A stretch of DNA of 64,000 nucleotides, from positions 1,504,001 through 1,568,000 of the forward strand of contig CBDCJH010000002.1 of the NCBI GenBank assembly GCA_965217775.1, written 5' to 3'. The stretch comes from Acidobacteriota bacterium (lineage in GTDB: Bacteria; Acidobacteriota; UBA6911; RPQK01; JAJDTT01). This document shows, piece after piece, positions 9,885-64,000 of this stretch. A model generated the notes under the pieces. That model ran no database searches. It saw only the letters and a list, made by a program, of their open reading frames with translations, and was not told the origin of the DNA. Numbering within the stretch: position 1 is the stretch's first letter; every line of letters begins with the position of its first letter. The translations under genes were made by a program, and so were the position numbers.

Positions 9885-10830
9885 GGTTTCTCCAAGCTGG
9901 CCATAGACAGATGTGATTTTTTCGCCGGAAGGGGCTCACCCGGCAGAAAAAAGAGGCCCAGCGGTGTGTCCGGCGCGGCAAGACGGGAGTTGAGAAGGTA
10001 ACTGTCCCTTCCCCTTTGGTTCCCCTCGTGTGAAAGAGAGCAGAACAATGCAATCGAGGCTTGCGCCAGCAACAAGGGGATCATGCCCGCTGTGGTCTTC
10101 CTCAGCCATCTGCTTTTATGGCTGGTGAGGCTTTCCATGATTCCGATCTCCTTGAGGTGACTCAGCCAGGCGTGGAAGACGCTTGCAGTCGCCGTCGAAT
10201 CGCCGGTCTCCTGCCCCCCGTGGAACATCCCCACAGAGGGCAGGAGGTACGTATCAATGAATGTGAATTTCTCGCCGGAATCGGCTCACCGGGTTAACAG
10301 CCGGACAAGGGGCCACGTCTGGTGCGGGAAACCGGATGTCCATGGTCCGCTTTCGAGTCCGAAAATGTACTTTGTTCGTACTCGAGGGGACCGGGAGAAG
10401 GGGATTGTTACATTCTCGTACTCGTAGAGTCTTCAACCGACCTCGGGTCGGGCACGGGAACTCTGCTCATGGCTGCCGCTCAGGCCCTGACGCAGCGAAG
10501 CGAAAGAGATTCCAGGCCACGCAGCACGATGCTATTGCGAAAGCGTGGCCGCTCGTTGAGAAGATTGATCTGCGGGAAGCGTTCGAGCAGTGTCTCCAGG
10601 ACGATCCGGCCTTCGAGACGCGCCAGAGGGGCGCCCAGGCAATGATGGATACCGCGTCCGAATGCCAGGTGGTTTCCTTCTCCGCGCTCGAAATCGAGCC
10701 TGTCAGGGTTCTCAAAAACATCCGGATCCCGGTTGGCCGCGCCGAGCAGGACGACGATGTTCTCGCGCTCACGCAAAGGGAAACCGTTGGGGATTATATA
10801 CGTAAGTGCCGAGAATTCAGGCTGATGGGT

Positions 10831-10836
10831 TACAAT
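10831..10836 (+). promoter_or_regulatory. Putative -10 box (TACAAT) for a leaderless tnpB transcript
   Basis: TACAAT ends 7 nt before ATG 10844 and there is no Shine-Dalgarno sequence; no clear -35. Confidence 0.4.
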
Positions 10837-10843
10837 TCCGACC

Positions 10844-12019
10844 ATGAAAGGCCACGCAACTATCCAGTGCAGAGCCAAGCTGTCCAAGGGTGGAATCCGG
10901 CGGTTGGACCGGGTGAGGTCCATCCTGAATCGGCTGTACAACGCTGCACTGGAGGAACGCAGAACGGCCTGGGAATCCGAGCAACGCGGCGTGACCCTGT
11001 ACGATCAGATGAAGGGGTTGACCTCCCAGAGGAAGGACGATCCGGAGGGGCTCGGGTCGGTGGCGGTCAAAGCGGAGCGTGGGATGTTGATGCGGTTGGA
11101 CCGGGCCTTCAAGGCGTTCTTCCGTCGCTGCAAGGCGGGGGAGAAGCCGGGGTATCCTCGATTCCGGCCCATTGCGAGGATGGAGACCATCGACGTCGTC
11201 GACCCGAAGGCGACCCTGGTGAAGAAGCGCGCTCGGGGCTACGCCATCCGGCCCAAGGGCTTCCCGACGATCCGGATCTTTCCGTCCCGGCCGTTGCCGG
11301 ACGGATGCCCGTTGAAAGCGTTGCGGATTGTCCGCAAGCCGAACCGGGTGTATGTGGACCTGACCTACGAGGTGGAGAAGCCGCCGCTACCGAAATGCGA
11401 GTCTTCGGTAGGGATCGACCTGGGCGTCCGCAAGCGAGCGGTGCTGTCCACGGGTGAGAGGATCGAACGGAATAGACGGGACTGGGCGGGGATCCGAAAG
11501 CAGCAGAGAAAGGTCTCCAGGTGCAAGAAGATTTCCAAGACCAGACGGAAGCGGATCGTACAGCTATCTCGGCTCCGTCACCGGGAATCGGTCCGAAACC
11601 GTAATGCCTGCCATCGTCTCTCCAGCAGGATCATTCGTGAGCACGGTCTGATCGCTGTGGAGAAGCTGAACATCCAAGGGATGGTAACGAAGGGCTCGAA
11701 GAAGAAGGGGCTGAATCGAGAAATACTGACGCAATCATGGGGGCTTCTGCGGAATCAACTCCAGTACAAGGCAGAATGGGCCGGTCGGAAGTTCGTAGAA
11801 GTGAATCCCGCATTTACCTCGCAGGACTGCCACCGGTGCGGCGCCCGCCACGATCCAGGACGGAGCGAAACCTTCCGGTGCAGGGCCTGCGGACTTGGAA
11901 TGGACAGGGACCACAATGCCGCCCTGAACATTCTCAGGGCTGGGGTTCTTGCCCTGGGCACCGGAACGTATCTCGTTGGGGAAAGCGTGGTGCCAGAACT
12001 GTATGCCAAGGGCACTTAG
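10844..12019 (+). CDS. tnpB: RNA-guided endonuclease TnpB (IS200/IS605 OrfB family), catalytic motifs intact
   Basis: LYNAALEER, AFKAFFRRCKAGEKPGYPRF; RuvC-I GIDLG, RuvC-II IAVEKL, Zn finger CHRCG/CRACG after TSQ, RuvC-III DRDHNAALNI. Confidence 0.95.
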   Translation: MKGHATIQCRAKLSKGGIRRLDRVRSILNRLYNAALEERRTAWESEQRGVTLYDQMKGLTSQRKDDPEGLGSVAVKAERGMLMRLDRAFKAFFRRCKAGEKPGYPRFRPIARMETIDVVDPKATLVKKRARGYAIRPKGFPTIRIFPSRPLPDGCPLKALRIVRKPNRVYVDLTYEVEKPPLPKCESSVGIDLGVRKRAVLSTGERIERNRRDWAGIRKQQRKVSRCKKISKTRRKRIVQLSRLRHRESVRNRNACHRLSSRIIREHGLIAVEKLNIQGMVTKGSKKKGLNREILTQSWGLLRNQLQYKAEWAGRKFVEVNPAFTSQDCHRCGARHDPGRSETFRCRACGLGMDRDHNAALNILRAGVLALGTGTYLVGESVVPELYAKGT

Positions 12020-12052
12020 GTATATAAGCCCCAAACCGTTTACTTCGCAGTC
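11930..12052 (+). ncRNA. Predicted TnpB omega-RNA (scaffold overlapping the tnpB 3' end and right TIR; guide = TSD plus flank)
   Basis: Stems seen by eye: CAGGGC/GCCCTG (11935-40/11951-56), GGCACC/GGTGCC (11957-62/11989-94), TGTATGCC/GGTATATA (12000-07/12019-26, two G-U pairs). Loop GGGGTT (11942-47) can pair with terminal AGCCCC (12027-32). Boundaries inferred by analogy with IS200/IS605 omega-RNAs. Confidence 0.6.
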
Positions 12053-13392
12053 CTCGAGCACGCGACGCATACTCATTTGTACCGGTGAGTCGAAGCGTAG
12101 CAGCTCCTCGACCGCCGCCGGAACCAAACTCGGATTCTCTCTAAGTTGTTGAAGCTGATCCGGATGACGCAAAAGGGCCAGCATGCTGTTGCCAATCATG
12201 TTGGTCGTGGTCTCATTGCCGGCAATCAGGAGCAGGCGCAGCATATTCAACGTTTCGCGCTCAGTCAGTTGGTTGCCCTCTTCCTCCGCTCGAACCAACG
12301 CGCTCACGATGTTGTCCTGGGGCGCCACGCGGCATTCCTTGATGATCGGCCGGAAATAGCCATCGAAGGCCTCGGAGGTGGCCTCGGCGACCGCGCGATC
12401 ACGGTCGTCTATCGTCGGCTCCAGAAGGCGCGCACGCTGATCCGACCAGATCTTGAATTGGGCGCGGTCCTTTGGCGGCACGCCCAGCATCTCGGCGATG
12501 ACGGTCACCGGCAGCGGTTGGGCCACTGCCTCCATGAGATCGAAGCCGGTGGGATCGTCGATGTCATCCAATAACTCCCCGAGAAGACTTCCGATGCGCG
12601 GCTCCAGGGCGTTCACGGCGCGTGAGATCGCCTTTGCGCGGATCGTTGCTGAAGCGCCTGTGGTCTCGCAGGATGGCATCCACGTCCGCGTGGCGCGTGA
12701 ACACCCAGGCATGCATCAGGCGGCTCCGGTGCACTGGGTCCCGTTCGCGTAGCGCCGCGTAGAGAGGATAGGGATTCTGAACGGTGCCGCTCGACAACGG
12801 ATTGTATGCGACACCGCTCTCCCAACGTTCACGCATGAGCATCGTGCGTGCGGCGACTGTCCGTATCGCGGTGCGAATTGCGTGTGTCATCGACCCCTCA
12901 GTGCGAGTATCCGAGTAAATCTTGCAAGGCGTTCCTGGCAGCCGCCAGGAATTTGTCTAATACAGGCATGCCGAAAGAAGCTTACACTTTTTGCCAAGTA
13001 TCGAGATCTTGCCAATATCACCCTCGATGTTGGCGATTTCTCGTCTGGCGGCCTTCCGGTTTTCGGGTCCCGGAAGTACGCCCGGGGGACCAGACTTCAG
13101 TGACTCCCACAGACTCATTGTTTCGGGCGATCGGTCGAATTTCCTGTCTTCAGAGGAGACGGGGGGATAGTCTTGTCCCCCGATTCCCATCTTCCCGTTC
13201 CGCGATGACGGTCGGCAGTTCGGCATCTGGAAAGCCGCCGTTCCTGGGCGGTGGGGGAGCTTCGATCGTTCCTCCACCGCGCCTTTGATTTGCTGTCGAT
13301 AGCAAATTACTCCCCCGGTTTTGCTATTGATAGCGAATACTTGCGGACGTCAGTCTACGGATCTCGTTCTCTGGTTGGACGATCCGCCTCTT

Positions 13393-63324: not shown

Positions 63325-63521
63325 CTCAATAGAACAGGTTATGGGCAACAACGGAATGAATTCAACAGATTCCGGCGGATTTTCCGGTTCCCGGAGATTT
63401 GTGGGAATGGTTGCTCAGCGGGGGCGGGCGAAGGTACCGGCATCTCAGTCAGGCACTATTTCGACATATAAAGCACTGAATAATCTGGGGGATTATATAC
63501 GAAAGTGCCCAAACCTGAGCA

Positions 63522-63704
63522 TTAACGCCGGTTCCGTGGCCGGTCTATCCATCTGATATTCACGGGCTGGACCAATGCACGGGCCAGCTCCTCGAAGTCT
63601 GCTTCCACGCGCATATCCTGTTCCAGTTCGGCCTTGGTCGGTTGGTAGGAATCCTTGACCAGTTCGATGGTGGGATGTTGGGGATTGTGTCTGGGTTTCT
63701 TCAT
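63522..63704 (-). CDS. Small hypothetical protein (YQPTKAELEQD motif) inside the second element
   Basis: 60 aa; ATGA overlap with the upstream gene; ends 12 bp from the TIR. Confidence 0.6.
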   Translation of the reverse strand: MKKPRHNPQHPTIELVKDSYQPTKAELEQDMRVEADFEELARALVQPVNIRWIDRPRNRR

Positions 63705-64000
63705 GCGGCCCTCGGCATCCTAGGTTGTTTCCCCTCAAAGGAGTCTTCCGCCGTGTAGATTTGAATCTTGGGCAGGTCCATGAAGCGTCCGGCGTTGACG
63801 GCGGCATTTCTCATGCCGTTGGTCACTCGGTCTCGAAAGCAGGTGAAGATGCCGAGATCAGCTCCGGCCTGTCGACGTGCGCCGTTGAAGGCTTGGACGT
63901 GTCCAGGATTGGTAGAGCCGCCTTTGACCTGAGAAACGATGTCAATGAACCGGCCCTGGCGGATCGGGAGCCGTCCCACGCCGTCAATTCCGCCATCCCG
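63701..64000 (-). CDS. C-terminal Mrr-like restriction endonuclease domain (possibly fused to a DNA methyltransferase outside the window), partial
   Basis: RDGGIDGVGR...IVSQVKGG...ADLGIFTCF matches the Mrr DGGID...QxK pattern. Confidence 0.7.
   Translation of the reverse strand, partial: RDGGIDGVGRLPIRQGRFIDIVSQVKGGSTNPGHVQAFNGARRQAGADLGIFTCFRDRVTNGMRNAAVNAGRFMDLPKIQIYTAEDSFEGKQPRMPRAA

Follow-up and report, generated by a model that had tools for sequence, protein, structure and literature searches.

A 64,000-nt stretch of the genome of an Acidobacteriota bacterium (GenBank assembly GCA_965217775.1, contig CBDCJH010000002.1, forward-strand positions 1,504,001 to 1,568,000), referred to here as the window, carries a 1,244-bp element at window positions 10789-12032. 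Its sole gene is tnpB, its inverted ends are 22 bp long, and it is flanked by a target duplication of 8 bp. The element is probably a non-autonomous IS1595 element whose last ~100 nt encode the core scaffold of a TnpB omega-RNA, a scaffold that is built from the right inverted repeat and that would take its guide from the flanking DNA. The part of this reading that concerns the origin of the scaffold, namely that the 3' scaffold of the omega-RNA is made from the right inverted repeat, is well supported by sequence comparison. In other words, one DNA stretch serves as a putative site of transposase binding, as an RNA fold and, in part, as TnpB protein sequence.

Cas12 descends from TnpB, whose natural role is understood in IS605 and IS607 elements, where scarless excision makes homing useful. 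The element described here shows how TnpB may adapt to a DDE transposon, the repeat bound by the transposase having been recoded into a guide-RNA scaffold.

The right inverted repeat and the RNA fold

A repeat search detected complementary arms at 10787-10810 and 12011-12034, which match at 22/24 positions. Comparison of copies showed that the outer 2 nt of these arms belong to the target duplication, and the inverted repeat proper therefore spans 10789-10810 and 12011-12032, with 20/22 positions matching. The two mismatches lie at repeat positions 5 (G12028) and 14 (G12019). The element is mobile. A DNA search of its own genome returned ~12 copies at 94-100% identity, plus diverged relatives at 71-85%. 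GGGGATTATATAC... and ...GTATATAAGCCCC mark the boundaries of each near-identical copy, and the 8-bp direct repeat on its two sides differs from copy to copy, which indicates a DDE-type insertion with an 8-bp target duplication. Duplications with at most one mismatch were found at 21 distinct sites in the genus and at 17 in other phyla. The features of the element and its insertion site are listed below; "both-sided" denotes a base pair in which both partners have changed among the aligned right ends, and the autonomous element is a resident IS1595 element of 1,762 bp that is described in the next section.

10780, + strand: G immediately 5' of the left target duplication, candidate base of a target-adjacent motif (37/38 insertions)
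10781..10788, + strand: left copy of the target-site duplication, AAACCGTT; the 8-mer recurs at 12033-12040
10789..10810, + strand: left terminal inverted repeat, 22 bp, one position off the autonomous IS1595 repeat
10844..12019, + strand: tnpB, 391 aa, with RuvC residues D192/E273/D356 and a CxxC..CxxC zinc finger intact
11935..11956, + strand: stem A hairpin, CAGGGC (11935-40) with GCCCTG (11951-56); 6 pairs, 3 both-sided, 100% of cells paired
11942..11947, + strand: 5' strand of the pseudoknot, GGGGTT in the loop of stem A; pairs with 12027-12032 and supplies the codons for G367-V368
11957..11994, + strand: stem B, a composite hairpin (GGCACC/GGTGCC, ACG/CGT, TCTC/GGGA); 13 pairs, 7 both-sided
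11995..11999, + strand: single-stranded linker AGAAC, in which R-GAA is kept across subfamilies and phyla
12000..12026, + strand: guide-proximal terminal hairpin, whose 3' arm is the right inverted repeat; lower stem conserved
12011..12032, + strand: right terminal inverted repeat of 22 bp; compared with the autonomous element, its positions 5 and 14 are derived
12017..12019, + strand: stop codon TAG of tnpB inside the right inverted repeat, kept in 12/12 distinct near-identical right ends
12027..12032, + strand: 3' strand of the pseudoknot, AGCCCC, the last six bases of the element; covaries with the loop
12033..12048, + strand: right target duplication (12033-12040) and flank, putative guide; the length of 16 nt is assumed by analogy with ISDra2

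The fold of the right end was examined by covariation. The tnpB elements of the genus were divided by their right ends into subfamilies labelled types A to G, the copy in the window being type A, and an alignment of 22 distinct right ends (A2) was made, 20 from the genus and 2 from Bryobacterales. The structure examined consisted of the helices that a preliminary description of this stretch had drawn, together with two inner helices of stem B and the pseudoknot. Standard pairs were formed in 97.9% of the 678 pair cells of the alignment, and 13/31 pairs had changed on both sides (51 cells). None of 500 shuffles matched any of the five covariation measures, a test with the caveat that related sequences may beat shuffles without structure. 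Slid controls, in which the 3' partners were moved by 1-3 columns, keep this relatedness and yet collapse, with 34-47% of cells paired and 1-4 compensatory pairs. Because these controls collapse and two alternative pairings fail on the same alignment, the covariation signal appears to be real. It is the covariation among right ends that the preliminary description had named as its check.

The helices differ in how the signal is distributed. Stem A changes across relatives from CAGGGC/GCCCTG to GGCGGC/GCCGCC. The outer helix of stem B, GGCACC (11957-62) with GGTGCC (11989-94), has 4 both-sided pairs among 6 and 99.2% of its cells paired. The ACG/CGT helix of stem B has 3 pairs, none of them both-sided (98.5% of cells paired), and the innermost helix has 4 pairs, 3 of them both-sided, with all cells paired; it is usually GGCC/GGCC and takes the form TCTC/GGGA in the window type, where it is still paired. 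The pseudoknot contributes 6 pairs, 2 both-sided, with 96.2% of its cells paired. In the lower stem of the terminal hairpin, 1 of 6 pairs is both-sided and 94.5% of cells are paired. One G-U pair of this lower stem is invariant (22/22); it and several further G-U pairs there fit only an RNA of the tnpB (+) sense. The helices that the preliminary description had placed in the last ~100 nt (11935-12032) were thus all recovered at their positions, each with at least one compensatory change.

Folded as a single sequence, the + strand of the 103-nt stretch has an energy of -43.3 kcal/mol (z -2.49, 3/200 shuffles as good), and the z-score of the - strand is -1.63. RNAalifold, run blind, recovered stems A and B. 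In the window the terminal hairpin (12000-12026) contains a C12007-G12019 pair, a bulged A12018 and the loop GGCA, and folds at -9.3 kcal/mol (z -2.31, 5/200 shuffles as good). The terminal segment forms a single hairpin that closes at its ends in 11/11 subfamilies, with z-scores from -1.5 to -6.5, and its upper stem is unalignable between subfamilies.

Two other pairings of the same bases were considered and rejected. The GTTCT/AGAAC pairing, which the preliminary description had raised as a competitor for the loop, can form in 88.2% of the cells of the 22 sequences, shows no compensatory change and is equalled by 464/500 shuffles. It is broken in types C and D, where the pseudoknot persists, and the caveat therefore found no support. 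A nested alternative, in which GGGCT pairs with AGCCC and GGGGT with GCCCT, has 84.5% of cells paired, is equalled by 175/500 shuffles and has one compensatory cell.

The pairing of the stem A loop with the end of the element extends across phyla. TnpB relatives were sought by a protein-pattern scan of one genome per species, and were found at 43-54% identity in metagenome-assembled genomes labelled Binatia, Bryobacterales, Dehalococcoidia, SAR202 and Caldilineaceae, and as a partial match at 65% identity in Alphaproteobacteria (L118). The loci in Binatia, Bryobacterales, Dehalococcoidia and Caldilineaceae (L070, L073-74, L076, L078 and the Caldilineaceae copies) have an IS1595-like end repeat and 8-bp duplications. 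The same terminal motif is present in a SAR202 locus (L102) and in L118, for which the left end and the duplication were not established; a second SAR202 locus (L077) has no such terminal motif. A script located 76 right ends in the loci examined, 45 of them distinct. In 45/45 distinct ends the 6-mer of the loop pairs with the final 6 nt at 5/6 or more positions, and in 40/45 it does so at 6/6. The combinations of loop and terminus were distributed as follows.

GGGAAT/ATTCCC: 19 distinct ends, all pairs Watson-Crick
GGGGTT/AGCCCC: 17 distinct ends, one G-U pair
GGGACT/AGTCCC: 1 distinct end, all pairs Watson-Crick
GGGGCT/CGCCCC: 1 distinct end
GGGGAT/ATTCCC: 1 distinct end
GGGGTT/ATCCCC or ATCTCC: 4 distinct ends, with a U-U mismatch
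Other single variants: 2 distinct ends

The left repeat tracks the right one, as in type D, which has GGGAATTATAAAG at both ends. Since the loop lies in the reading frame of tnpB, residue 368 of TnpB (codon 11945-11947, after a conserved RAG) follows it and is V, N, A or T. In these sequences both repeats, the loop and codon 368 evolve together, and the transposase-binding site in this manner dictates a residue of the nuclease by way of the pseudoknot. The preliminary description had proposed a scaffold that is co-adapted to the right inverted repeat, and this is borne out by the concerted change of loop, right end and left end (GGGGTT/AGCCCC, GGGAAT/ATTCCC, GGGACT/AGTCCC). A scaffold that is built from the right repeat and co-adapted to it also means that tnpB is not passive cargo. 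What has to be given up is the idea of adaptation to a new end, because the arrangement is old and widespread, being common to TnpB relatives of several phyla.

A covariance model was built from A2 without the pseudoknot and searched over 40 loci. Full-length matches ending exactly at the element end were found in the Binatia locus, seven Chloroflexota loci and L118, whose loop is GGGAAT and whose terminus is ATTCCC. Neither the 22 loci with more distant TnpBs (28-37% identity) nor the 3 autonomous IS1595 elements were matched. The model also missed L076, L077 and, but for a single partial match at E 0.35, L102.

Do the two mismatches of the right end have a function, as the preliminary description had claimed for both? 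The right end is derived at both positions, and at both it has gained pairing. At repeat position 5 the autonomous element has A at both ends, so that T would be expected at 12028; the derived G12028 converts a U-U opposition in the pseudoknot to a U-G pair, and the derived base is common to types A, B, F and G and to Bryobacterales. At repeat position 14 the autonomous element has G at both ends, C would be expected at 12019, and the derived G12019 pairs with C12007 and completes the TAG. The pattern does not extend to all lineages, as type E is ancestral at position 5 and keeps the mismatch in the pseudoknot, and some left ends have changed as well. Types B and F have altered the left end at position 5 too, and no mismatch remains there; at position 14 the left end was changed to fit the right one in four copies (L010=L052, L025, L031). 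That both mismatches are functional is plausible from one lineage each and from the general pattern.

The stop codon inside the right inverted repeat, which had also been noted, is present at 12017-12019 and ends the 391-aa open reading frame (ORF). Of the 12 right ends that bear this TAG, 2 have a change nearby: L005 lacks 1 nt, and L009 has a substitution. In types D and E tnpB stops at PEL*, just past the linker; type A has TAT where D and E have TAG or TAA, and reads five further codons to its TAG. Types B and F use other stops within the repeat. Judging from this comparison, a stop codon inside the inverted end is a feature of some lineages and not of the family.

Nuclease, transposon family and RNA libraries

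The motifs of the nuclease are intact. TnpB matches PF07282 (1.8e-25) and PF01385 (9.7e-18), both above cut-off, and the NCBIfam model guided_TnpB (NF040570) with 215.9 bits against a cut-off of 100. The family-specific models stay below their cut-offs (IS200_TnpB, NF038281, 165 vs 425; IS607_TnpB, NF038280, 127 vs 350). The protein also matches the structure of ISDra2 TnpB (8bf8) with an E-value of 1.4e-32, residues 26-375 being aligned. The RuvC triad, D192 in GIDLG, E273 in AVEKL and D356 in DRDHN, is invariant in 7 subfamily proteins and aligns with the same motifs of an ISDra2-like chain; it presumably equates with the catalytic residues D191/E278/D361 of ISDra2. The full open frame of tnpB is kept by 12 copies in the same genome.

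The ends of the element point to its family. The same terminal motif bounds a resident 1,762-bp element with 5 copies in the genome. In the genus this element occupies 16 distinct insertion sites, all with an 8-bp duplication, and its ORF of 334 aa encodes a DDE transposase of the IS1595 family (PF12762, DDE_Tnp_IS1595, 1.8e-38; NF033547, 177 bits, cut-off 75). Over the first 22 bp, the left end of the tnpB element differs from the repeat of this autonomous element at 1 position and the right end at 3. Of the properties of an IS1595 element, the shared inverted repeats and the 8-bp duplication are present and an own transposase is absent, tnpB being the only long ORF. Without a transposase of its own, and with ends that are nearly those of the 1,762-bp element, the tnpB element is thus a non-autonomous IS1595-family derivative. 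Most likely, to judge from the shared ends, the resident 1,762-bp element moves it in trans. One candidate source of transposase lies in the window:

63488..64000, strand not assigned: start of one autonomous 1,762-bp IS1595 copy, its repeat read, cut by the end of the window

The duplication ATAATCTG at 63480-87 precedes this copy. The 1,762-bp element also holds two ORFs on the same strand (127 and 104 aa in L021) without a Pfam match.

As in the ISNwi1-like group of IS1595, the duplication is 8 bp long and the inverted ends start with GGGG/GGGA-ATTAT. The end consensus of ISNwi1 is ggnnatTAT, with an 8-bp repeat (ISfinder). The element is unlike IS1595 elements in that it has no transposase, with tnpB and the RNA in its place. 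Membership of the families with which TnpB is usually associated does not fit. The inverted ends and duplications depart from the definition of IS200/IS605, including the tnpB-only IS1341 group, whose members have neither and insert 3' of a fixed motif of 4-5 nt (PMC13565253). They likewise depart from that of IS607, which has a serine recombinase, lacks inverted ends and duplication, and ends in GG (PMC13565253).

The Binatia, Bryobacterales and Dehalococcoidia genomes also encode IS1595 transposases. Among 11 transposase loci, 3, in the Binatia and Bryobacterales genomes, could be resolved to inverted ends of the GGGAATTATATAC or GGGGATTATAAC type with 8-bp duplications. As these loci carry the same type of end, the terminal motif belongs to the transposon family and it is the RNA that has adapted to the motif.

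Eight RNA-labelled runs cover the stretch, and four of them were examined, all as contigs. Contigs from the 3' part of tnpB cross the repeat to 12033/12036 and continue into flanks, for 64 nt in run X1, 47 nt in X5 and 18 nt in X6; the 47-nt extension in X5 is the flank of another copy. One X5 contig (record 21, 255 nt, from the 3' region of a related subfamily, placed on 11755-11969) has a depth of 1897 vs 9.6-26 for contigs from the tnpB body, although depth differences between contigs of this size-fractionated RNA library are only a hint. Several short X5 contigs begin at 11753-11762, a hint that the 5' end of the RNA may lie near 11755. The high-depth contig is suggestive of an abundant processed RNA of ~255-280 nt. 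The stretch 10798-11189 is without contig cover in X2 and X5, which is uninformative. By analogy with known systems, the RNA would run into the flank, the duplication first, and the flank would be used as guide.

Insertion sites and the possible role of TnpB

Insertion sites of tnpB elements show a strong asymmetry. Read in the orientation of tnpB, the base directly before the left duplication (-1) is G at 20/21 distinct sites in the genus and at 17/17 in other phyla. The genus sites come from 34 loci, of which 3 have no recognisable tail and the rest have 31 distinct right ends, 10 of these without a left end and matching duplication; the sites in other phyla come from 33 loci, 4 without a tail and 12 without a left end by pattern. 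For the autonomous 1,762-bp element the same position is G at 3/16 or 7/16 sites, depending on orientation, and a comparison of tnpB and autonomous sites by Fisher's exact test yields 6.6e-9 for one orientation and 1.9e-5 for the other. On the opposite side, the base that follows the right duplication is C at only 10/21 sites in the genus and 2/17 in other phyla. The first base of the duplication is A at 20/21 genus sites and 11/17 elsewhere. Position -5 is A at 21/38 sites (12/21 in the genus, 9/17 in other phyla), and no longer motif was found.

When the 10 genus ends left out of these counts were looked at again, the matching site of L033 had G and four non-matching left ends had G, G, G and A. 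A more lenient recovery of left ends in other phyla was kept out of the counts, as an internal repeat-like sequence in 1,445-bp Caldilineaceae variants confounds it; the real left ends with non-matching duplications that it recovered again had mostly G. Two other sources of the G were rejected. A 9-bp duplication or a shifted boundary is excluded in that the base before the right copy is always the C of the repeat, and an asymmetry of the repeat is excluded in that lineages with identical termini still have G at 17/17.

Occupied and empty sites can be compared directly at the insertion in the window, where the element splits a cytochrome P450 gene whose halves meet at Pfam profile position 354.

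10483..10788, - strand: C-terminal part of the interrupted P450 (PF00067, 3.3e-12, profile positions 354-432)
12033..12715, - strand: middle part of the interrupted P450 (PF00067, 3.7e-10, profile positions 209-354)

In X5 and in X6, one contig passes directly from 10780 to 12033; it skips 1,252 bases, and 8 letters at the joint fit both sides. This joint restores the uninterrupted P450 gene and represents the unoccupied allele of a related strain; occupied and empty alleles thus coexist in nature. In the occupied allele the base before the target is the terminal C of the repeat, and in the empty allele a G stands directly before the would-be guide match. The N-terminal part of the P450 (12564-12956, - strand) is out of frame with the middle part (ORFs 12564..12956 and 11735..12715), and this frame change near 12,6xx-12,7xx may be an additional frameshift or an assembly indel.

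How could a nuclease produce such an asymmetry? The sequences hint that the G at -1 is a motif imposed by the nuclease, with a logic of self-protection. In the proposed mechanism, the IS1595 transposase would move the element in trans. TnpB would process or bind an RNA with a scaffold that stops at the boundary of the element and a guide that begins in the duplication, and would cut the unoccupied allele where G precedes the target. The occupied allele would escape, since there the target is preceded by the terminal C of the repeat and not by G. Repair from an occupied copy would then restore or spread the element, or cells without the element would be disfavoured. It is a tentative proposal, held with somewhat less than even confidence, that this TnpB lineage has been re-engineered for life with IS1595, that its motif is approximately a single G, and that the G at 37/38 sites is a population-level footprint of RNA-guided homing or retention. 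The orientation-specific G, lacking in the tnpB-less partner, together with the coexisting alleles offers a testable lead on whether TnpB serves DDE elements. If the G is indeed a footprint of homing or retention, TnpB would decide which DDE insertions survive, and there would be direct evidence of a benefit that cut-and-paste elements draw from OMEGA nucleases. A motif that is truly a single G would also give this 391-aa nuclease practical interest, as a compact editor whose targeting is only very loosely constrained.

Several observations weigh against the reading of the element as an IS1595 derivative with a flank-guided scaffold RNA. An Rfam scan of 10500-12400 with E up to 1 matched no family. 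The minimum free energy structure favours the nested alternative over stem A with the pseudoknot. The conservation of stem A and its loop is partly coding (RAGV), and so invariance there is not independent and only compensatory changes count. Four type-E ends retain the U-U mismatch in the pseudoknot, and one mismatch is also present there in type C. The RNA-labelled runs, being contigs, cannot establish the ends, strand or level of an RNA and may include DNA. The Caldilineaceae genome had no IS1595 transposase above cut-off with PF12762, the only query used (best 24.7 bits), and trans-mobilisation is therefore not demonstrable there. To these is added an argument from the literature, namely that cut-and-paste excision by a DDE transposase already leaves a break, so that a homing nuclease would bring little benefit (PMC13565253).

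This last argument also counts for the most serious rival, in which the scaffold is real and TnpB does something other than homing on the empty site, such as cleaving or repressing a fixed sequence, killing cells that lose the element or aiding DDE transposition. The G before the duplication would then reflect a preference of the transposase or of the insertion site. Restorative homing is argued to be less beneficial where excision leaves a break by itself (PMC13565253), the TnpBs that have been studied have motifs of 4-5 nt, unlike the single strongly constrained base and weak A at -5 (21/38) seen here, and the autonomous element too favours G or C beside its AT-rich 8-mer (12/16 in either orientation). 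However, the asymmetry follows the orientation of tnpB even where the repeat termini are identical, and it is absent in the tnpB-less partner (3/16 or 7/16 vs 37/38). Furthermore, the RNA's 3' strand stops exactly at the element boundary, as in systems that take the guide from the flank, and the RuvC triad is intact and invariant, unlike in inactivated regulatory derivatives. The rival is accordingly considered unlikely.

Two further explanations dispense with the omega-RNA. The hairpins could be a stabiliser or terminator at the 3' end of the mRNA, or a regulator of transposase access to the right end, given that the transcript-coding part ends in a stable hairpin, which overlaps the repeat bound by the transposase. 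Yet no U-run follows the hairpin, both-sided changes in the pairing of loop and terminus would have no purpose in a simple terminator, and autonomous IS1595 copies have the same repeat without the structure (0/3 matched by the covariance model). The four-part topology, moreover, is that of the ISDra2 omega-RNA (PMC10097598), and a role confined to the mRNA or to access of the transposase appears highly improbable. It is harder still to believe that there is no functional RNA, the pairings being by-products of the inverted repeat, GC-rich coding and the relatedness of copies, and tnpB being passive cargo. Relatedness can indeed beat shuffles without structure, and the single-sequence z-score (-2.49) is modest. 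It would leave unexplained, however, why slid controls on the same related sequences fall to 34-47% paired and 1-4 compensatory pairs from 97.9% and 13, why two alternative pairings on that alignment give no signal, and why the pairing survives across phyla despite differing sequences. The changes in the loop that preserve pairing also alter residue 368 (V, N, A or T), and 12 copies of the ORF are intact.

Relation to known systems

The nearest well-described counterpart of the proposed RNA is that of ISDra2, whose omega-RNA has a 116-nt scaffold in which the loop of stem 1 (-103 to -105) pairs with -5 to -3 as a pseudoknot, with stems 2, 3 and 4 in between and -1A between the pseudoknot and a 16-nt guide (PMC10097598). 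The two systems are alike in having a homologous nuclease of the same size (8bf8/8exa/8h1j) and a scaffold that ends at the element boundary. The order of parts is also the same (PMC10097598): stem A with one pseudoknot strand, stem B, linker, terminal hairpin, the 3' strand of the pseudoknot and the flank. Stem A is the equivalent of ISDra2 stem 1, and the scaffold core here has 98 nt (11935-12032). ISDra2 is without inverted ends or duplication, has a Y1 TnpA and inserts after TTGAT, which is also the motif of its nuclease (PMC13565253). In contrast, the element described here has IS1595-type inverted repeats and an 8-bp duplication, the 3' elements of its RNA are the repeat itself, nearly the whole scaffold lies inside the ORF, and only a G, with no conserved motif of 4-5 nt, precedes the target.

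TnpB in DDE transposons is already known in outline. Altae-Tran et al. (2023) described six DDE-associated TnpB branches, all with inverted terminal repeats, in which the 3' end of TnpB lies within 250 bp of the transposon end (PMC10691335). They also described solo TnpBs with ends nearly identical to those of transposase-bearing elements, suggesting trans-mobilisation, and a solo tnpB with the ends of a transposase element is the same situation as the one found here (PMC10691335). The main text of that paper names IS630 alone and uses the term IS1595 0 times, and the parts of it that were examined contain no RNA structure, no covariation between pseudoknot and repeat and no insertion-site asymmetry (PMC10691335). 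The lineage described here may be one of the six branches (DDE-1 to DDE-6). A 2026 review lists an association of DDE transposons with TnpB for ISL2, IS630 and IS1031, and calls it rare in prokaryotes and of uncertain benefit (PMC13565253).

The principle of recoding is likewise known. Yoon et al. (2023) found that the pseudoknot is required in the TnpB of ISXfa1 (IS607) and predicted one in Fanzor2*; for eukaryotic and viral Fanzor elements they further predicted a recoding of inverted repeats and duplications into the scaffold (PMC10711439). The same principle therefore appears in the reRNAs of Fanzor1 and Fanzor2*, which belong to cut-and-paste transposons (PMC10711439). Fanzor elements differ in that they are eukaryotic or viral and have short fixed duplications that are absorbed in the scaffold, and the RNAs of Fanzor1 are predicted to be without a pseudoknot (PMC10711439). 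Here the host is bacterial, the duplication is 8 bp long and variable, and a pseudoknot is kept that uses the terminus of the repeat. A variable duplication can serve only as guide, except perhaps for its first base.

The literature on TnpB with IS1595 and on ISNwi1, judged by title or abstract, had nothing on this arrangement. As far as could be seen, the partnership with IS1595, the retained pseudoknot that uses the repeat terminus and the variable 8-bp duplication as the start of the guide are apparently undescribed. So, to the same extent, are the coupled change of the loop, both repeats and codon 368, and the single-G asymmetry.

Some copies of the element depart from the regular form. 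In L003 (= L030, G000:C2:1186780-1188023), L028 and L037 the left and right 8-bp flanks differ from each other, which was probably brought about by recombination between element copies. L014/L018 (G000:C2:5734355-5735332) is a deletion derivative in which most of the C-terminal half of tnpB is gone and the RNA scaffold and right end are kept. L012/L015 (G000:C2:4647309-4648714) is a copy broken by ~160 bp of inserted DNA. The Caldilineaceae genome (G015; L075-L101) holds ~25 copies of tnpB-bearing IS1595-type elements. In several of these the two duplications do not match each other and recur at other copies, as in L083/L086 and L087/L088/L091, and this points to recombination between copies.

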